Source: a virus
Taxonomy: Duplodnaviria > Heunggongvirae > Uroviricota > Caudoviricetes
Reading direction: 5' to 3' (one strand)
Virus record (IMG/VR): IMGVR_UViG_2606217173_000005
Length of the DNA stretch: 8,078 nt
Shown piece after piece: positions 1-8,078 of this stretch. The position numbers were made by a program, and so were the translations under genes. A model generated the notes under the pieces. The model saw nothing but the letters and a program-made list of their open reading frames with translations. It was not told the origin of the DNA and did not search any database. The first letter of the stretch is position 1, and each line of letters begins with the position of its first letter.

Positions 1-1026
<1,026 letters not shown>

Positions 1027-1279: not shown

Positions 1280-2248
1280 ATGAGTGAAGTAACAGATTTA
1301 GTTGTTATTGAAAAAGCAAATGCAATGACTGTATTTCAGTCTGCCGACCAGATTGAAGAAATCCTTCAAAAGGTTGAACGTGAAGTTATGTCCTTTGTGC
1401 CTGATATCACAACGGCAAAGGGCAGAAAGGAGATCGCTTCTCTGGCGTATAAAGTTGCGCAGACGAAAACATATCTCGATGGTCTTGGCAAAGACCTTGT
1501 TGCTGAACTGAAGGAAATTCCAAAGCTAATTGATAACAACCGCAAGACAGTGCGCGATCGCCTTGATGAACTGAAAGCCAAGGCGCGCCAGCCTCTTACT
1601 GATTATGAGGAGGAACAGGCACGGATTAAAGCCGAAGAAGAAGCTAAGGCAGCAGCTGAAGCTCTCGCAAAGCAAATTGAGTCTGACCATGAAATAGCGA
1701 TTTTGATGGATCGCGAATTTGACCGCCAAAGAGAAGAGGCAAGACTCAAAGCGGAGCAGGAAAAGCGAGAGCATGAAGAACGCTTAAAAAGAGAAGCTGA
1801 AGAGAAAGCCAGAGCTGAAGCCGAAGCAAAGGCAAAAGCCGAAATTGAAGCAGCAGCAAGGCGAGAAGCAGAAGCTAAGGCCGCAGCGGAACGTGCAGAG
1901 CGTGAACGCATTGAAGCCGAGCGACGAGCACAGCGCGAAGCAAAAGAGGCAGCAGAACGAGCGGAAAGAGAAAAGCAGGCGGCAATTGAAGCAGAACGCC
2001 GAAAAGCACAGGAGGAGGCAGAACGAATCCGGCGCGAGGCTGAAGCAAAAGAGCAAGCCAGAATAGCAGAAGAAAAAAGAATCAAGGACGAAGAAGAGCG
2101 TAGAGCAAAGGATAAAGCTCACCGGAAAGAAGTAAATAACAAAATACTTGCTGACCTTATCAAGGTTGGCGCATCAGAAGATGTTGCTAAAAATATCATA
2201 ACAGCCATCGTAAAAGGCGAAGTATTCGCAACAAAAATAACCTACTAA
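1280..2248 (+). CDS. Hypothetical phage protein with a structured N-terminal domain, a roughly 170-aa E/R/K/A-rich helical region and a short C-terminal domain
   Basis: 322-aa ORF with a strong SD (AAGGAGG at 1269-1275) shortly upstream of the ATG; the central region is low-complexity AEAKAKAEIEAAARREAEAKAAAERAERERIEAERRAQREAKE...; no family recognised with certainty. Confidence 0.8.
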   Translation: MSEVTDLVVIEKANAMTVFQSADQIEEILQKVEREVMSFVPDITTAKGRKEIASLAYKVAQTKTYLDGLGKDLVAELKEIPKLIDNNRKTVRDRLDELKAKARQPLTDYEEEQARIKAEEEAKAAAEALAKQIESDHEIAILMDREFDRQREEARLKAEQEKREHEERLKREAEEKARAEAEAKAKAEIEAAARREAEAKAAAERAERERIEAERRAQREAKEAAERAEREKQAAIEAERRKAQEEAERIRREAEAKEQARIAEEKRIKDEEERRAKDKAHRKEVNNKILADLIKVGASEDVAKNIITAIVKGEVFATKITY

Positions 2249-2272
2249 TAAAACCAACATAAGGAACCACCC

Positions 2273-2419
2273 ATGATTTACGCAATCGCGGGAGGCGCTC
2301 GCATGGGTGCCTTCCAACTAAATGAATCTTTACTTGAACGAATCACCCGTAAATTACGTGACGGATGGAAACAACTCATCGACGTACTTAATCAGCCAGG
2401 AGTTCCCAAAAATGGATAA
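2273..2419 (+). CDS. cIII: CIII-like inhibitor of FtsH (HflB) protease
   Basis: 48-aa ORF MIYAIAGGARMGAFQLNESLLERITRKLRDGWKQLIDVLNQPGVPKNG with RBS AAGGA upstream; the ESLLERITRKLRDGWKxLIDxLNQPGVPKNG segment matches my recollection of the lambda CIII amphipathic-helix core. Below the size cut-off of the supplied ORF track. Confidence 0.7.
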   Translation: MIYAIAGGARMGAFQLNESLLERITRKLRDGWKQLIDVLNQPGVPKNG

Positions 2420-2525
2420 AACACTTATGGCTATCCAGACTAAATTCACTATCGCCACTTTTATTGGCGATGAAAAGATGTTTCGTGAGGCCGTCGAAGC
2501 CTACAGGAAATGGAGGTCAAAATGA
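2412..2525 (+). CDS. Small ORF at the position occupied by kil in lambda (possible Kil-like host division inhibitor)
   Basis: 37-aa ORF MDKTLMAIQTKFTIATFIGDEKMFREAVEAYRKWRSK; AGGAG at 2398-2402 precedes the ATG; overlaps the cIII-like stop by 8 nt and the next ORF as ATGA. Assignment is by position and size only. Confidence 0.4.
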   Translation: MDKTLMAIQTKFTIATFIGDEKMFREAVEAYRKWRSK

Positions 2526-2710
2526 TTCCGGTAGAACTGGCGAAAACTCCAGAGTTAAGTCGATTAAAAAGAGAATATCACATTGCTGAGGCTCGTTACT
2601 GGCGTAAAGCGGGAGATAAATCAAAGAAACAACTTTGTTTATGGCAGGCACAAAGAGAGCGCATGAATGAGCGCGAGTTTCTTTCCTCCCCATCCGAATT
2701 ACCATTCTGA
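2522..2710 (+). CDS. Hypothetical small basic protein (62 aa)
   Basis: GGAGG at 2512-2516 then ATG at 2522; ATGA overlap with the upstream ORF; stops 8 nt before the Sak4-like gene. Confidence 0.5.
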   Translation: MIPVELAKTPELSRLKREYHIAEARYWRKAGDKSKKQLCLWQAQRERMNEREFLSSPSELPF

Positions 2711-2718
2711 GGCAAATT

Positions 2719-3399
2719 ATGGGAACTGCGACATTAATACTCGGTGAGTCTGGCACCGGAAAATCAACCAGCATGAGAAATATCAATCCAGAGGAAGCAA
2801 TACTTATAAAACCAATAGGCAAGCCGCTACCATTTAAATCAAAAGAATGGCTGGCATGGGATGCCAGAGCAAAAAAAGGAACCGTAGTTACCACTGACAA
2901 ATGGGACGTAATAGTTGCCGTAATTAAGCGTGCTCACGAATACGGGAAAAGAATCGTTATTGTTGATGACTTCCAGTATGTGATGAGCAATGAGTTTATG
3001 CGCCGTTCAGAAGAAAAGTCGTTTGATAAATTTACTGAGATAGGCCGCCACGCATGGGAGGTGATTAAGGCTGCACAGGATGCGCCTGATGACCTGAGAG
3101 TCTATTTTCTTGCGCACACCGAAGAAACACCTATGGGGCGCGTGAAAATGAAAACTATCGGCAAAATGCTGGACGAGAAAATCACTGTTGAAGGCATGTT
3201 TACTATAGTTCTTCGCACCCTTACCCGTGATGACCAGTTCTTTTTCACCACGAAAAACAACGGTGCAGACACTGTTAAATCCCCAATGGGAATGTTTGAT
3301 ACCAATGAGATTGATAACGATCTCTCTTTCGTCGATGCCACTGTTTGTGATTACTACGGCATCAATAATGTTCATCAAATTAAGGAAAACGCCGCATGA
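2719..3399 (+). CDS. Sak4-like RecA-core ATPase (phage single-strand annealing protein, AAA_24-type)
   Basis: 226 aa; N-terminal Walker A LILGESGTGKST; Walker B-like RIVIVDDFQ; size and motif order typical of phage Sak4; RBS GAGG upstream. Confidence 0.8.
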   Translation: MGTATLILGESGTGKSTSMRNINPEEAILIKPIGKPLPFKSKEWLAWDARAKKGTVVTTDKWDVIVAVIKRAHEYGKRIVIVDDFQYVMSNEFMRRSEEKSFDKFTEIGRHAWEVIKAAQDAPDDLRVYFLAHTEETPMGRVKMKTIGKMLDEKITVEGMFTIVLRTLTRDDQFFFTTKNNGADTVKSPMGMFDTNEIDNDLSFVDATVCDYYGINNVHQIKENAA

Positions 3400-3983
3400 G
3401 CAACGTGATTTTTACTTATAACGAAGAAGCAGCACTGACCGCAGGGCAAGGTGGTTTTATTAACGAAACTGGCGCTCATATAATTACCATTACTGAAGCA
3501 GAACTAAAGCAATCAGAAAAAGGCGCAAAATTTATTGAGTTTTCTGGCGAATCCGACGACGGACGTAAAATACAATATCTTAGCGTTTGTGTTCAGAAAA
3601 ATGACGGAACGGAAAATAAATTTGGCGCAAATGTCGTCCACGCCATGATGGGGTGTGTTGGGATTAAGCGGTTAACGCAACATATGGTTTCCGCCAGTAA
3701 ATTTGTTGCACCTGAATTTCATGGAAAGAAAATCGGGTTAGTGCTCCAGAAAGTATTAACCACAAACAAAAAGACTGGCGCAGACAGCTACCAGATGGAA
3801 ATACGCATCCCGTTTATTGCACAAACAGGTCAAACCCTTAAAGAAAAGTCGGAAGGCAAGCAACCAGAAACTATCGCCAACATGGCTGCCAACCTCAAAG
3901 ATAAAGACAATCGCTCTAAAAACGTAAGCCAGAATCATGCAGATGATTATGGTTACAGCCAGAACGATTACCCTCCTTTCTGA
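3396..3983 (+). CDS. Putative phage SSB-like partner of Sak4 with acidic/aromatic C-terminal tail
   Basis: 195 aa; ATGA start/stop overlap with the Sak4-like gene; C-terminus ...HADDYGYSQNDYPPF resembles the SSB C-terminal tip (DDDIPF-like); RBS AAGGA at 3382-3386. OB-fold not verified. Confidence 0.7.
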   Translation: MSNVIFTYNEEAALTAGQGGFINETGAHIITITEAELKQSEKGAKFIEFSGESDDGRKIQYLSVCVQKNDGTENKFGANVVHAMMGCVGIKRLTQHMVSASKFVAPEFHGKKIGLVLQKVLTTNKKTGADSYQMEIRIPFIAQTGQTLKEKSEGKQPETIANMAANLKDKDNRSKNVSQNHADDYGYSQNDYPPF

Positions 3984-4006
3984 TTACTGAAAATAAGGAT
4001 TCCATT

Positions 4007-4303
4007 ATGCCAGCGCCTCTGTATGGTGCGGACGACGCGCGCCGCTGTTCCGGCAATTCCGTATTGGAGGTGCTGGATAAATTCAGAAAAAACTACGACC
4101 TGATAATGTCGCTACCGCAGGAAACGAAAGAGGAAAAGGAATTTCGCCATTGTATCTGGCTTGCAGAGAAAAAAGAACGCGAGCGAATTTACCAGACATC
4201 AATCCGACCATTCCGCAAAGCCACATATACCCACTTCCCTGAATATATCGACCCGCGCCTGCGTAATTACCGCTCACGCTATGGCGCTATCAGTAATGAC
4301 TGA
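4007..4303 (+). CDS. Hypothetical protein (98 aa)
   Basis: RBS AAGGA at 3995-3999, ATG at 4007; codirectional in the operon; no recognisable motif. Confidence 0.7.
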
Positions 4304-4313
4304 GGAATTTACC

Positions 4314-4478
4314 ATGAGAGGACTTGCATACAATCCCAGCATTCTTCCGGCAGAAATGATTATTCGCCAACGCGTAAAGCCAATGCCATCGAGAGAGGAA
4401 TTGCTTAAGAGAAATTCTTTTCCGTCAGTGAATCAAAACAAATATCTAAATGCGATGTTGCGGAGTGGGAAGAAATGA
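4314..4478 (+). CDS. Hypothetical small protein (54 aa)
   Basis: GAGGA at 4302-4306 then ATG at 4314; ends in an ATGA overlap with the next gene; preferred over the longer 4161 start, which overlaps the preceding gene in another frame. Confidence 0.45.
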
Positions 4479-4897
4479 AACAAATGTCACTAATTGAAAT
4501 GGATGGTTTTCTGAAAGGTAAATGCATCCCACGAGATTTAAAGGTTAACGAAACAAACGCTGAATATCTGGTGCGTAAATTTGCTGAAGCGAAGGCCAAG
4601 TGCGCGGCGCTGGCAGCGGAGAATGCGGCGCTTAAACAGTCGGAGAAGGAATTTAATAACTTCTGTCGTCAGGAGTACTACGGTTGGGAGGACAACTTCA
4701 CGGAAACCCCAGCCACCGATGCTTTCCTGGCTGAAGTACGGGCGCAGGGTGTGGAGATGCTGGCAAAAAATCATCAGAGTATCGTCAATGCACTTAAGGG
4801 AGATTCTCTCTTTTCTGATGGTGAATACCGACATGCAGCTATTGTTTCCGCAGCTGTATATTTCGCTGCAGAGCTTCGCAAAGGAGGCAGCCAGTGA
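4475..4897 (+). CDS. Hypothetical protein (140 aa)
   Basis: GGAG at 4462-4465 then ATG at 4475; the stop overlaps the next gene's GTG start (GTGA). Confidence 0.7.
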
Positions 4898-5775
4898 GAG
4901 AAATTAACTATCAGGAACTGCGTGAGCGTTATTCACAGCAACCAGTACCAAAATGCCGCATTTGTGGTGATGAAATGACAGTGCAGCGTATATGTGGCAG
5001 ACACATCACGTATGGATGTACAGGCGCAACCTACGACGACAAAGGTTGCTACTACGCAGAAGGCCGCAGTATCGCAGATGACCATTATGGGCTGTCCCGC
5101 GTCACTGTTATCGATGTTAGCGACCCGGAAGTTCTAGCATTACTGGATGAACGGGAAAGAAACCAGCAATACATCAAATCCCGCGACAAGGAGAACGAGG
5201 ATATTGCGCTAACGGTAGGGAAGCTGCGCGTTGAGCTGGAAGGCAAAGACAGCAAAATAGCCAATCTTACCGCCGAACGCGATGCTCTTCGTGAAGGTGA
5301 GATGGGCGACGCTAGGCATAGCAACACACGGGCCGCAGCTGATATCTACTTCCAACTGGTCGAGGAGTGCGAAATTCCTGCTGGCGGTTCTCTGGTCGAG
5401 TACGTTGACGATATGCGCGAGAAGCTGGAAGCCGCAGAGAAGCACATAGCAGAACTGGAAACAAAAGCGAACCAGCAAACCAGAATAAGCGATAAGGGGC
5501 TGACAAAGCTGATTGCCGATGCTGACAAAATGCTGGGTATGCGTTCGCCGGTTATAGACAGCGAGTGGTGGACGCTTTTACGGCAGTTCCTGATTGAACT
5601 TCAGGATCGCCGCAGAAACAGCATTTCTGAATCTGGAATCCGTGCTGAAACCCTGAATGATTTAATCCGACATATTGACAGAAACCTGGATATTGACGCG
5701 ATGAAATCGCCGTTTGAACTGTCATCTGAAATTGTGGATTACGTTAATAGGCAACTGCACAAGGAGAATTCGTAA
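4894..5775 (+). CDS. Ea22-like prophage protein with N-terminal Cys-rich putative zinc ribbon and central coiled coil
   Basis: 293 aa; GTG start 6 nt after AAGGAGG (4881-4887); Cys cluster CRICGDE...C...C...C in the first 55 residues; the segment LLDERERNQQYIKSRDKENEDIALTVGKLRVELE matches my recollection of the conserved Ea22 core (not database-verified). Confidence 0.75.
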   Translation: MREINYQELRERYSQQPVPKCRICGDEMTVQRICGRHITYGCTGATYDDKGCYYAEGRSIADDHYGLSRVTVIDVSDPEVLALLDERERNQQYIKSRDKENEDIALTVGKLRVELEGKDSKIANLTAERDALREGEMGDARHSNTRAAADIYFQLVEECEIPAGGSLVEYVDDMREKLEAAEKHIAELETKANQQTRISDKGLTKLIADADKMLGMRSPVIDSEWWTLLRQFLIELQDRRRNSISESGIRAETLNDLIRHIDRNLDIDAMKSPFELSSEIVDYVNRQLHKENS

Positions 5776-5957
5776 TGCAGGTGGCATTTGTTGGCCTGTT
5801 ACCGCATCCGATCCGCCTTTGGGCGGATATGTCACTCATAAAAACGCATTTTTTTACTACTGATGGCGGCATTCCGGCACCAAAGCGCCGCCATACCGGT
5901 ATTGCAGCGGCACGACGAGCAGCAAAGAAACGCAAACGCAGGAGAACAAAACGATGA
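5775..5957 (+). CDS. Hypothetical small protein with extremely basic C-terminal tail (60 aa)
   Basis: AAGGAG at 5761-5766; TAATG overlap with the upstream gene and ATGA overlap with the downstream gene; tail PKRRHTGIAAARRAAKKRKRRRTKR. Confidence 0.45.
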   Translation: MQVAFVGLLPHPIRLWADMSLIKTHFFTTDGGIPAPKRRHTGIAAARRAAKKRKRRRTKR

Positions 5958-6142
5958 AAAACCGTAAAGCAAAAATTCTTTTGACCTGTAGAAACGCGCG
6001 CGGCGTCCAGCAATGGTTAAAACTCAGTAACCGCAGAATGGGATTGTTCACAAACACGGCTGATATCGTGATGTGTTTTCTTAACAAACCCAGCGCGGCG
6101 CAAAACCGCTGGAAAAACCACTTGCGCACTAAAGGAGAGTGA
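5954..6142 (+). CDS. Hypothetical small basic protein (62 aa)
   Basis: GGAG at 5941-5944 then ATG at 5954; stop at 6140-6142, immediately before the next start. Confidence 0.5.
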   Translation: MKNRKAKILLTCRNARGVQQWLKLSNRRMGLFTNTADIVMCFLNKPSAAQNRWKNHLRTKGE

Positions 6143-6143
6143 T

Positions 6144-6362
6144 GTGCCTACATTATTCAGAAAAGAATACCCGCGAAGAAGCAGGACAATAGAAATCATG
6201 TTTCTCATTCTGTTTATCGTGTTGATGATACCGATATCCCCGCTAATTTTTATCTGGGCAATCGGGAAAATAATTGAGCCAGTTATTGAATTGTATAACG
6301 ACGTGGTATGGGCGTCGTTCAACACACTGCACAATAAAATTAATCCGTATAAGGAGAACTGA
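6144..6362 (+). CDS. Small predicted membrane protein (72 aa, one long hydrophobic segment)
   Basis: GTG start after AAAGGAGAG (6131-6139); basic N-terminus RKEYPRRSR followed by the hydrophobic stretch IMFLILFIVLMIPISPLIFIWAIG. The start could instead be the internal ATG. Confidence 0.5.
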   Translation: MPTLFRKEYPRRSRTIEIMFLILFIVLMIPISPLIFIWAIGKIIEPVIELYNDVVWASFNTLHNKINPYKEN

Positions 6363-6363
6363 T

Positions 6364-6882
6364 ATGACCACTATTACCAGAGAAAACGCGGAAATTAAAT
6401 CATTCATCACTGGTTTCCTGAGCGACCCGGCGCACGATAACCAATCTTCAGACAGCCTGCTTGCCAATGTGTTTCGTATCGCACTGGCGTCACTGGAAGC
6501 AGAGCCGGTGGCGTGGAAGGTAACATTCACGCAAATTGACCGTGAATATAACACGTTCACTGGTATGTATTCTGACAAAGCAGAAGTCGAACGGTGGGTG
6601 CGGCTGCATAAAGCATGTAATTTTCGGGCAGATATAACACCGCTTTATACCGCCAAGCCAGTGCCGGTAACTCCGGATGGTTGGATAAGCTGTAGTGAGC
6701 GAATGCCAGAGGATGGTCAGCACGTAATTATTTTATGTGATGGCGCATTCGTTCTTCATGCGCAATATCGAGACGGTGAGTTTTTCGATATTGTCCGCAA
6801 TGGTGATGAATTTTTTGAAACACAGAGCCGCAATGTAACCGACTGGATGCCGCTACCAGAACCGCCGCAGGAGGTGAAGTAA
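6364..6882 (+). CDS. DUF551-type prophage protein
   Basis: 172 aa from the ATG at 6364 (RBS AAGGAGA at 6351-6357); C-terminal motif WISCSERMPEDGQHVIIL...DWMPLPEPP is, as I recall it, characteristic of DUF551 proteins of lambdoid prophages. Confidence 0.75.
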   Translation: MTTITRENAEIKSFITGFLSDPAHDNQSSDSLLANVFRIALASLEAEPVAWKVTFTQIDREYNTFTGMYSDKAEVERWVRLHKACNFRADITPLYTAKPVPVTPDGWISCSERMPEDGQHVIILCDGAFVLHAQYRDGEFFDIVRNGDEFFETQSRNVTDWMPLPEPPQEVK

Positions 6883-7160
6883 TGGACTCCTTCGCGAAAT
6901 ATACAATTATTGACTGGATAGCCTTCCTTCAGGTTTTGCTCATCTGGTTTTATATGGCTTACAGGAGTGGACAGTGGATTGTCAGTGTAGCCTGTAGCAA
7001 GGGATGGCGTTGGTGGAACAGAAAGAATAAAAAAGCACTGGCATTGGATTCGTTTTACGAAGCATTCAATCTTAACAGCCTTCAGCCTGGTTCTGTCATT
7101 GTAGTCACCACTCAAAGCGGCATGACCATTCAGATTCATAAACCAAAAGAGGAAAAATGA
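6882..7160 (+). CDS. Hypothetical protein with hydrophobic N-terminal segment (92 aa)
   Basis: Strong RBS AGGAGGTG at 6869-6876; TAATG overlap with the DUF551 gene; hydrophobic IIDWIAFLQVLLIWFYMAY followed by the basic, Trp-rich KGWRWWNRKNKK. Confidence 0.6.
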   Translation: MDSFAKYTIIDWIAFLQVLLIWFYMAYRSGQWIVSVACSKGWRWWNRKNKKALALDSFYEAFNLNSLQPGSVIVVTTQSGMTIQIHKPKEEK

Positions 7161-7246
7161 TGTGGCCTATATGTGTTAATTGCGGACGGATGTGCCTATC
7201 TGGATGGTGCCGAAAGTGCGACAAATGCACGAAGAAAAGACAATAA
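7157..7246 (+). CDS. Cys-rich micro-ORF (28-29 aa, putative zinc-ribbon peptide)
   Basis: MMWPICVNCGRMCLSGWCRKCDKCTKKRQ; six Cys spaced CxxC-x3-C-x4-CxxCxxC; AAGAGG at 7147-7152; ATGA-coupled to the upstream gene; immediately followed by tandem terminator hairpins. Not in the ORF track. Confidence 0.35.
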   Translation: MMWPICVNCGRMCLSGWCRKCDKCTKKRQ

Positions 7247-7250
7247 CAAT

Positions 7251-7277
7251 CCTCGCACTCGCGGGGATTTCTTTTAT
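7251..7277 (+). terminator. Candidate intrinsic terminator (first of a tandem pair)
   Basis: Hairpin cctcgc-actc-gcgggg (7251-7266, one G-U pair) followed by the T-rich run atttcttttat. Confidence 0.4.
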
Positions 7278-7282
7278 CTGAA

Positions 7283-7308
7283 CTCGCTACGGCGGGGTTT
7301 GTTTTTTT
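7283..7308 (+). terminator. Candidate intrinsic terminator (second of the tandem pair)
   Basis: Hairpin ctcgc-tacg-gcggg (7283-7296) followed by tttgttttttt; the stem sequence is a near-duplicate of the first hairpin. Confidence 0.45.
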
Positions 7309-7311
7309 GAG

Positions 7312-7617
7312 ATGATTATGGTCTGTTCAACATTCAACCCTCTAACGTTACAGAAATACCAGCCAGACCCTGAAGATTTATGCTCACTGTGTGGCGGAAA
7401 TCATGGCAAAGCCGCCATGATCGAATGTAAGGACAAAATCCACATATGCCTTAATTGCGTTGATGTCCTCGTTGATATCAAAAATGAGAGAGAAGATAAA
7501 AAGCGTAGCGAGGCTGTTCGCGCCTTAGATTCATGGATGCGAGATGGGTATAGTGCCGCGCAAATTTATGACTTAGCCATTTCAAAAGGCGAAATACCAG
7601 GTGTGCGAATCGAATAA
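7312..7617 (+). CDS. Hypothetical protein with CxxC...C...CxxC zinc-finger-like motif (101 aa)
   Basis: ORF with Cys pattern CSLCGG...C...CLNC; weak RBS; starts directly after the tandem terminators. Confidence 0.6.
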   Translation: MIMVCSTFNPLTLQKYQPDPEDLCSLCGGNHGKAAMIECKDKIHICLNCVDVLVDIKNEREDKKRSEAVRALDSWMRDGYSAAQIYDLAISKGEIPGVRIE

Positions 7618-7652
7618 GAAGCGCACTCAAGCATCTTTTGGAGAAATCACAA

Positions 7653-7820
7653 ATGCACTTCCGAGTCACAGGAGAATGGAATGGAGAGCCATTCAACAGA
7701 GTTATCGAAGCAGAGAACATCAACGACTGCTATGCCCACTGGATGCTGTGGGCGCAGATAGCACATGCAGACGTAACCAATATTTGTATTGAAGAACTGA
7801 AAGAACACCAAGCCGCCTGA
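7653..7820 (+). CDS. Hypothetical small protein (55 aa)
   Basis: GGAG at 7640-7643 then ATG at 7653; its stop codon lies in the loop of the downstream terminator hairpin. Confidence 0.5.
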   Translation: MHFRVTGEWNGEPFNRVIEAENINDCYAHWMLWAQIAHADVTNICIEELKEHQAA

Positions 7821-7832
7821 TGGCGGTTTTTT
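7812..7832 (+). terminator. Intrinsic (rho-independent) terminator
   Basis: GC stem ccgcc (7813-7817) / ggcgg (7822-7826), 4-nt loop, then six T (7827-7832). Confidence 0.65.
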
Positions 7833-7877
7833 ATTACCTGATTTGCAGGTTCGATTCCCTATTTGGAGATAGCACTC

Positions 7878-8078
7878 ATGCAACACGAACTACAGCCTGA
7901 TTCACTGGTTGATTTGAAATTCATCATGGCCGATACTGGCTTCGGTAAAACCTTCATCTATGACCGGATTAAGTCCGGCGACCTGCCAAAAGCCAAAGTT
8001 ATCCACGGGCGAGCAAGATGGTTATATCGTGACCATTGTGAATTCAAAAATAAGCTCTTAAGCCGCGCCAATGGGTAA
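7878..8078 (+). CDS. torI: Excisionase / recombination directionality factor of the Xis-AlpA-TorI winged-helix family
   Basis: 66-aa ORF MQHELQPDSLVDLKFIMADTGFGKTFIYDRIKSGDLPKAKVIHGRARWLYRDHCEF...; the pattern F-x-Y-x-x-I-x-x-G-x-hPK-x-x-K-x-G-x-x-x-RW is typical of AlpA/Xis-type excisionases; length and sequence match my recollection of TorI of prophage KplE1 (CPS-53), not database-verified; GGAG at 7865-7868 precedes the ATG at 7878. Confidence 0.75.
   Translation: MQHELQPDSLVDLKFIMADTGFGKTFIYDRIKSGDLPKAKVIHGRARWLYRDHCEFKNKLLSRANG

Follow-up and report, generated by a model that had tools for sequence, protein, structure and literature searches.

What kind of unit is a run of small genes, packed start to stop, that lies between the recombination genes and xis of a lambdoid phage: a system inherited as a whole, or a row of separate modules? 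The question is raised by a stretch of 8,078 nucleotides (nt) from the IMG/VR virus record IMGVR_UViG_2606217173_000005 (Caudoviricetes), hereafter the window, in which an initial annotation, made from the sequence alone, had singled out positions 4007-7246 as a cassette of eleven fused accessory genes with an undescribed function. We consider, with a probability of roughly 0.85, that the leftward early operon of a P22/HK620-type (Lederbergvirus-like) Escherichia prophage has its distal "ea" (early accessory) part here, arranged as an array of single-gene modules that each fill a positional slot. In its distribution, the block is a mosaic of common modules that are exchanged independently and are rarely found in this combination; it is not a co-inherited cassette. 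Maps of such regions go back to the P22 and HK620 genome papers, and the block is not a new multi-gene system.

The sequence was re-read from 3960 to 7340 and every gene junction was tabulated. Ten open reading frames (ORFs), all on the + strand, fill the block, one fewer than had been claimed. They are called g1 to g10 below and, together with the element that closes the block, are as follows (aa, amino acids; the figure after a family name is the E-value of the match).

4007-4303, + strand: g1, abc2, a RecBCD-co-opting (anti-RecBCD) protein of 98 aa (PF11043, 1.8e-60; phrog_656).
4314-4478, + strand: g2, a basic DUF2737 protein of 54 aa, net charge +8 (PF10930, 3.1e-32).
4475-4897, + strand: g3, an EaE/hkaH-like protein of 140 aa (phrog_614, 2.8e-53; without a Pfam match).
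4894-5775, + strand: g4, an Ead/Ea22-like protein (293 aa; start codon GTG; PF13935, 1.3e-30).
5775-5957, + strand: g5, a product of 60 aa with an Arg/Lys-rich tail, net charge +14 (phrog_13831, 1.7e-22).
5954-6142, + strand: g6, a basic protein of 62 aa, net charge +12 (phrog_1380, 2.6e-27).
6144-6362, + strand: g7, a small DUF4014 membrane protein (72 aa; start codon GTG; PF13198, 2.6e-25).
6364-6882, + strand: g8, a DUF551 protein (EaA/hkaE-like) of 172 aa (PF04448, 1.7e-20).
6882-7160, + strand: g9, a membrane-anchored DUF4752 protein of 92 aa (PF15944, 2.4e-36).
7157-7246, + strand: g10, a Cys-rich ORF of 29 codons (MMWPICVNCGRMCLSGWCRKCDKCTKKRQ) that overlaps g9 at ATGA and is preceded by the motif GAGGA.
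7248-7298, + strand: tandem hairpins resembling intrinsic terminators, with T runs, that close the block (terminator scan).

Are these ten genes inherited together? With abc2, g3, g7 and g9 as anchors, approximately 320 related loci were fetched, and all of the window genes were scored in each. The complete set (at least 90% identity) was found in two contigs only, and every other locus held at most six of the genes. The first of these contigs is 100% identical to the window over positions 2144-7296 and probably has the same source. The second is 99.6% identical over 3990-8078, the 4.1-kb segment from abc2 to xis, but has an annealase of the Erf type and another SSB on its upstream side; one and the same combination of Abc2 and ea genes is therefore paired with unrelated recombinases. 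The mosaic junction lies at position 3990 (position 5519 in the second contig), within the 23-nt spacer between the SSB gene and abc2. Megablast searches matched pieces of the block to 3323 of the 5426 complete E. coli genomes and to 580 phage records, none of which held at least 80% of it in one place.

Gene content varied just as widely among closely comparable loci. Twenty-five loci with abc2 and the same xis showed 20 different patterns of presence and absence, with an abc2-xis interval of 1.2-4.3 kb, compared with 3.56 kb in this window. Only two pairs were linked: g2 (DUF2737) adjoins abc2 as a constant neighbour (78/80 abc2-anchored loci), and g10 follows g9 in 48 of the 79 loci anchored on g9. 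Pairwise conditional co-occurrence was mostly below 30%. For instance, g9 was present in 12/80 and g7 in 0/80 of the abc2-anchored loci, and loci anchored on DUF4014 mostly had no abc2 (present in 4/80) and infrequently had g6 (21/80) or g5 (16/80). The genes assort independently across prophages, with the full set confined to two near-identical contigs, and the block is not a "cassette". Co-occurrence across prophages had been put forward in the initial annotation as a check on its proposal, and its absence as one half of what would count against it; the gene set does not co-occur elsewhere.

Could the ten genes nevertheless form one co-evolved multi-gene system with an anti-defence, exclusion or host-modulation role? 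Such a system would be consistent with the tight translational coupling and the lack of internal signals, and the complete set does recur in two IMG/VR contigs at 99.6-100% identity. These recurrences, however, are near-identical copies and not independent conservation. The patterns in the remaining loci and the low pairwise co-occurrence argue against it as well, as do the equally tight coupling of unrelated upstream genes and the lack of any PADLOC match. We regard a single system as highly improbable; the co-occurrence data have already largely refuted it.

The homology depth along the window indicates where exchange takes place. Homology breakpoints cluster at the gene ends and at three short islands that are common to many otherwise unrelated loci, namely 5131-5251 (in the coiled coil of g4), 6660-6714 (at the start of the DUF551 domain) and 7240-7316. 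In addition, domain shuffling was seen between g3, g4, g6 and other Ea22-type proteins (cf. PMC10834534). The pattern is the mosaic familiar from lambdoid phages and agrees with the published account of mosaic Ea22 genes and of DUF551 as a portable domain (PMC10834534).

The location and kind of region had been correctly recognized at the outset: the block lies in a lambdoid early-left operon of the P22/HK620 type, in the hypervariable part that separates the recombination genes from xis. Two observations place it there. First, the Sak4 and SSB genes (2719-3983), the block (4007-7246) and xis (7878-8078) follow one another on the + strand. Second, blastp comparisons and annotated maps gave the anchors abc2, orf56/hkaI, eaE/hkaH, eaD/hkaG and eaA/hkaE in this same order. 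The order of the whole window (cIII, hkaM, Sak4, SSB, abc2, DUF2737, hkaH-like, Ead-like, ..., DUF551, ..., xis) is that of HK620 and P22, the conserved members being 94-100% identical.

Every overlap claimed for the block was recovered: ATGA at 4475-4478, 5954-5957 and 7157-7160, GTGA at 4894-4897, and TAATG with its ATG at 5775 and 6882. The gaps comprise 10 nt (4303/4314), 1 nt (6142/6144) and 1 nt (6362/6364), so that the junctions range from -4 to +10 nt. A purine-rich, Shine-Dalgarno-like motif stands 5-12 nt before each of the ten starts; therefore, the chain of ORFs did not arise by chance and is a real, translationally coupled array. The tight chaining does not make the block distinct, as the initial annotation had implied that it was. 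The upstream genes at 2273-3983 are equally packed (e.g., the -4 overlap at 3396, between 2719-3399 and 3396-3983), which makes tight packing a property of the whole operon and not of the block.

The initial annotation saw neither a promoter nor a terminator inside the block. In a consensus scan, the + strand had no sigma70-like site anywhere in the window, and the only terminator-like site on the + strand within the block was a weak one with a 5-bp stem at 6055-6070. Sigma70-like matches are depleted in the window as a whole, with two, both on the - strand, compared with 11.3 +/- 3.6 in dinucleotide-preserving shuffles. Across the window, Rfam gave no match at E <= 1, no Chi site was present, and the CII-type motif TTGC-N6-TTGC occurred once, at chance level.

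These signals also bear on the possibility that some of the genes, mainly g7 (DUF4014) and g9 (DUF4752, with g10), are lysogenic-conversion morons, expressed from the prophage for superinfection exclusion or host defence. Superinfection-exclusion factors are typically small membrane proteins. Both g7 and g9 fit that description; furthermore, g9 and g10 stand together in 48/79 loci, and the lack of P22 or HK620 counterparts marks these genes as add-ons. Against this, g7 and g9 have no promoter-like site on the + strand, do not form a unit bounded by terminators and are joined to adjacent genes of the early lytic operon by translational coupling. They have no PADLOC match, and the known exclusion genes of P22 and HK620 (sieA, sieB and hkaP) occupy other positions and have either promoters of their own or the opposite orientation. 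We consider the moron interpretation quite unlikely.

What can be said of the individual genes? Only two products had been thought assignable. Pfam places six of the ten (g1, g2, g4, g7, g8 and g9) and PHROGs nine, so that this count was too low; most products carry no functional label, the PHROGs labels reading "unknown function" except for Abc2 and a dubious label on g7. No ORF matched NCBIfam, none of the ten proteins matched a PADLOC-DB family at E <= 0.01, and Pfam searched at E <= 10 with the ORFs lacking a family returned noise only. A sequence search of PDB with g3, g4 and g8 gave chance-level matches (E >= 0.28), and a literature search for a functional study of DUF4752, DUF2737 or DUF4014 found none. 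Coding was assessed by the third-position excess (a codon-position test) on divergent homologues. The excess was clear for g1, g2, g3 and g9, moderate for g4, g6, g7 and g8, and absent for g5; coding is supported for nine of the ten ORFs either by this excess or by a preserved open frame. The membrane and cysteine features reported earlier were confirmed: hydrophobic segments are encoded at 6144-6362 (Kyte-Doolittle 2.87) and 6882-7160 (1.78), and cysteines cluster in g4, with five between residues 21 and 52, and in g10, where they make up six of the 29 residues.

The first gene is not undescribed. The product of g1 matches PF11043 over its full length (profile positions 1-97 of 97) and the P22 protein solved in complex with RecBCD (PDB 8b1t_A/8b1u, "Anti-RecBCD protein 2", 5.5e-55), is 94% identical to HK620 hkaJ and 91% to P22 Abc2 by blastp, and has a third-position excess of 2.20. 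By sequence, g1 is a member of the Abc2 family, a RecBCD modifier that has been characterized biochemically and structurally and that is part of the recombination module; P22 Abc2 binds RecC and modifies RecBCD (PMC9836394). Its neighbour g2 is 96% identical to HK620 hkaI and 77% to P22 orf56, with an excess of 2.68.

In g3, a conserved N-terminal region of ~50 aa and a coiled-coil stretch are followed by a variable C-terminal module that is common to some Ea22-type proteins; this C-terminal part matches the C-terminal half of phrog_368, the N-terminal half of which matches g4. The identity of g3 is 59% to hkaH and 60% (partial) to P22 EaE, and its DNA homology to other loci falls off after about 4640. 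In g4, a N-terminal Cys cluster (Cys 21, 24, 34, 42 and 52) and a central coiled coil precede a rare C-terminal domain. The PF13935 match covers residues 3-142 (profile positions 2-133 of 139), that is, the conserved N-terminal segment and the central coiled coil. HK620 hkaG resembles g4 only in residues 72-191 (87%), and P22 EaD is 39% identical. The DNA encoding the N- and C-terminal parts of g4 was found in only one or two of 161 loci, compared with about 70 for the island 5131-5251; a scan of genome contigs gave two partial matches only, and among PDB chains, searched down to E = 1, the C-terminal domain had no relative in sequence.

In the middle of the block, g5, g6 and g7, like g9 and g10 farther to the right, have no counterpart in P22 or HK620 (blastp against their proteins). 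The g6 family is small (56 clusters, all from Escherichia or Salmonella), and its third-position excess is 1.61. Alignment of the family revealed that the first 10 and the last ~18 residues are almost invariant, with a middle that comes in at least three unrelated-looking versions. Some homologues of g6 are fused to the N-terminus of Ead/Ea22 or to DUF4014. The conserved ends may reflect recombination linkers at the DNA level and not protein function. A reading of g6 as a ribbon-helix-helix protein was dropped: it had no profile support, and the family consists of conserved ends and a variable middle.

The hydrophobic segment of g7 spans residues 12-45, and its frame is open in a homologue of 53% identity. 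An antisense ORF of 105 aa (6017-6334, - strand) overlaps g6 and g7 and matches phrog_20982 (4.8e-36). We rejected it as a gene and treat it as a shadow ORF: divergent homologues, including the 53% identical one, have stops in the antisense frame where that of g7 is open. Judged from these sequences, phrog_20982 looks as though it had been built on mis-called genes. The label of phrog_1832, the DUF4014 family of g7, is "released from the phage upon host infection", which is verbatim the product name of P22 gene 20 (NC_002371), an ejection protein of 471 aa. Such a label does not fit a membrane protein of 72 aa from an early operon, and it therefore looks mis-propagated.

To the right, the PF04448 match in g8 covers residues 106-169 (~65 aa), in the region of the W-x-x-x-x-E-x-x-P motif. 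The structure model of g8 combines an alpha/beta domain at the N-terminus with the DUF551 domain at the C-terminus, which is all-beta and has five strands. Its identity is 29% to hkaE and 33% to P22 EaA, within a huge family (7941 matches). YfdS, a DUF551 protein of the cryptic prophage CPS-53, helps to inhibit replication initiation, redundantly with YfdT, when yfdQRST is over-expressed (PMC4776307). The family of g9 is small (47 clusters, the members named by source being E. coli and Enterobacter). Its N-terminus forms a hydrophobic helix, and its third-position excess is 2.57. The adjoining g10 has six Cys in three CxxC motifs and begins 275 nt after the start of g9 in every locus checked individually. 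We regard g10 as a possible micro-protein.

Two of these short frames might not be genes at all: g10 (7157-7246) might be the run-in to the terminator, and g5 (5775-5957) a spacer that is open by chance. Neither Pfam nor PHROGs has a family for g10, the Prokaryotic Genome Annotation Pipeline (PGAP) does not annotate it, the Bas106 record calls a different frame there, and all of its copies are 96-100% identical; for g5, the third-position ratio is 1.09. In contrast, g10 is joined to g9 by ATGA, follows a GAGGA motif and has its CxxC motifs in a regular pattern, and g5 belongs to a PHROG family and is annotated by PGAP. Its frame stays open at 59-61 aa in alleles of 55-58% identity, with the basic motif IPAPKRRHTGIAAARRAAKKR conserved. 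On balance, we find it doubtful that these two frames are non-coding, although this reading carries some weight.

The block ends at a structured element. Strong sites consisting of a hairpin and a T run lie at 7248-7269 and 7283-7296, the first beginning two bases after the last stop codon, and the element as a whole (7244-7312) consists of the two hairpins, each with its T run, followed by the ribosome-binding site of the next gene. Its predicted RNA fold has an energy of -24.1 kcal/mol (z = -3.1 against shuffles), and the terminator pairs were kept in 90% of cells, compared with 33-53% in slid controls. Of 327 related loci, 191 have the element, irrespective of which genes flank it, and in some loci the first hairpin has been swapped for others. 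The element is absent from the P22 and HK620 records, and the records inspected carry no annotation of it. From its sequence, it is probably a tandem intrinsic terminator at the right edge of the variable ea block.

On the two sides of the block, the same operon contains the following features.

2719-3399, + strand: a Sak4-type annealase, 99.6% identical to HK620 hkaL (HK620 annotation; PMC5928155).
3396-3983, + strand: an SSB, 96.4% identical to HK620 hkaK (HK620 annotation; PMC5928155).
7312-7617, + strand: a protein of 101 aa with two CxxC pairs (phrog_3680; weak match to a ClpX-type zinc finger, E = 0.014).
7653-7820, + strand: a protein of 55 aa (phrog_676), the real start of which is ATG 7653 and not TTG 7638.
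7810-7829: a strong terminator that overlaps the stop codon of the 55-aa gene (terminator scan).
7878-8078, + strand: a xis/TorI-type excisionase, the real start of which is ATG 7878, 100% identical to hkaC.

Farther to the left, the window begins with an IS5 element that ends at 1049, with the transposase at 1-981 (- strand), the right inverted repeat at 1034-1049 and then CTAG. The insertion, about 3 kb upstream of the block, interrupts a gene of the early-left operon that is phrog_646/DUF7167-like and cuts the operon off from its promoter region. Between IS5 and cIII lies a gene for a protein of 322 aa (1280-2248, + strand; phrog_1376) with a long coiled-coil centre rich in Glu, Ala, Lys and Arg; RefSeq calls it "cell envelope biogenesis protein TolA", a name that probably arose as an artefact of low complexity.

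Several points weigh against our assignment of the block to an ea region made of single-gene modules. Because IS5 occupies positions 1-1049, pL, nutL and N fall outside the window, and the assignment of the promoter rests on homology to HK620; moreover, IS5 lies within the operon and might exert polar effects in this prophage. Scanning for consensus promoters is a crude method that could overlook an internal promoter if it is weak or not of the sigma70 type. The co-occurrence data come from loci collected with four anchors on contigs that are partly truncated, which makes the absences upper bounds. A fold search with the structure model of g8 gave no known or informative fold, its BFVD matches being DUF551 proteins, and the AlphaFold2 model of g9 was of low confidence (predicted local distance difference test score, 67.5) and too weak for such a search. 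Finally, beyond Abc2, experimental knowledge of the block genes is thin, and no function has been shown for eight of the ten.

How would an operon of this kind work? By homology to the HK620 annotation, loss of the repressor would lead to one long transcript from pL, which an N-type antiterminator would carry through the terminators, and the ORFs would be translated as a coupled chain through the ATGA, GTGA and TAATG junctions. The tandem terminators at 7248-7298 would stop polymerase that had not received the antitermination modification, ahead of the xis-proximal genes. Abc2 would bind the Chi-recognition domains of RecC and co-opt RecBCD for the phage recombinase, here Sak4 with SSB. The product of g4 would form coiled-coil oligomers of the Ea22/EaD type and carry a rare effector domain at its C-terminus, and by analogy it may bias the decision between lysis and lysogeny, a tentative suggestion to which we give slightly less than even odds. 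The portable DUF551 domain is carried by g8, g7 and g9 would be small inner-membrane proteins, and g5 and g6 are tiny, highly basic ones. Most likely, we infer, g2, g3 and g5-g10 serve early host takeover or inter-phage competition, each as a separate factor. The arrangement itself probably originated by recombination at the gene junctions and at the islands 5131-5251, 6660-6714 and 7240-7316, which would swap alleles between lambdoid phages.

The practical unit for functional work is the single gene, or at most the pairs g9 with g10 and abc2 with DUF2737, and not a 3.2-kb "cassette", of which one tenth, abc2, has been explained. What novelty is left rests with single small genes, chiefly g9 with g10 and g5/g6. 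That one add-on module (DUF4752 with the 29-codon Cys-rich ORF, or g5/g6) is a new factor of early host takeover, anti-defence or inter-phage competition seems to us unlikely; no functional study and no structural analogue of these families were found. Phage genes for counter-defence and host takeover reside mainly in such regions, and a catalogue of slots should be useful for screening. The putative terminator element at 7244-7312, widely conserved and unannotated, marks the right boundary of the variable block in many P22-like prophages.

Finally, how does the block compare with known systems? The "accessory regions" described by Silas et al. (bioRxiv 10.1101/2023.04.06.535777) resemble it as hotspots of variable, non-essential small genes with conserved flanks that adjoin a known counter-defence gene. 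In that study, abc2 served as a control, and the neighbouring P22 abc1 triggers a P4-encoded abortive system. The block differs in that none of its families is among the named hits, the supplementary tables containing only one unrelated DUF551 fragment, and counter-defence activity is known for no block gene except Abc2. Phage Bas106 carries g6, g7, g9 and g10 at 94-100% identity, and an anti-restriction role for these four genes is argued against.

The exo-xis region of lambda and Shiga toxin (Stx) phages (ea22, ea8.5, orf60a, orf61, orf63 and orf73) likewise lies between the recombination genes and xis, is transcribed early from pL and is highly mosaic. Its Ea22-type gene has the same plan of a conserved N-terminus, a coiled coil and a swappable C-terminal domain (PMC10834534, PMC7093339). 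Ea22 genes are mosaic, and DUF551 is a portable domain (PMC10834534); the Ea22 proteins of lambda and Stx phages form tetramers and promote lysogeny (PMC7093339, PMC10834534), the pro-lysogenic effect being shown only for these proteins. Unlike that region, the window has no discernible homologue of ea8.5 or orf60a/61/63/73.

The ea region of P22 reads abc2, orf56, eaE, orf45, eaF, eaD, eaI, eaA, eaG and eaC, and abc2-orf56-eaE-eaD-eaA have the same position and orientation in the pL operon as their counterparts here, between the erf/abc genes and xis. The orthologous slots are abc2 (91%), orf56 (77%), eaE (60%, partial), eaD (39%) and eaA (33%). P22 differs in its Erf/Arf/Abc1 in place of Sak4/SSB; the window lacks abc1, eaF, eaI, eaG and eaC and has the extra slots g5-g7, g9 and g10. 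HK620 (NC_002730), in turn, has no counterparts of g5, g6, g7, g9, g10 or the downstream 101-aa and 55-aa genes, and its hkaF and hkaD are absent from the window. HK620 otherwise runs parallel to the window: its upstream module of hkaM, the Sak4 gene hkaL and the SSB gene hkaK is 96-99.6% identical to that of the window, and hkaJ-hkaI-hkaH-hkaG-hkaF-hkaE-hkaD presents the same order of abc2, DUF2737, hkaH-like, Ead/Ea22-like, DUF551 and xis, on the same strand and with the same packing.

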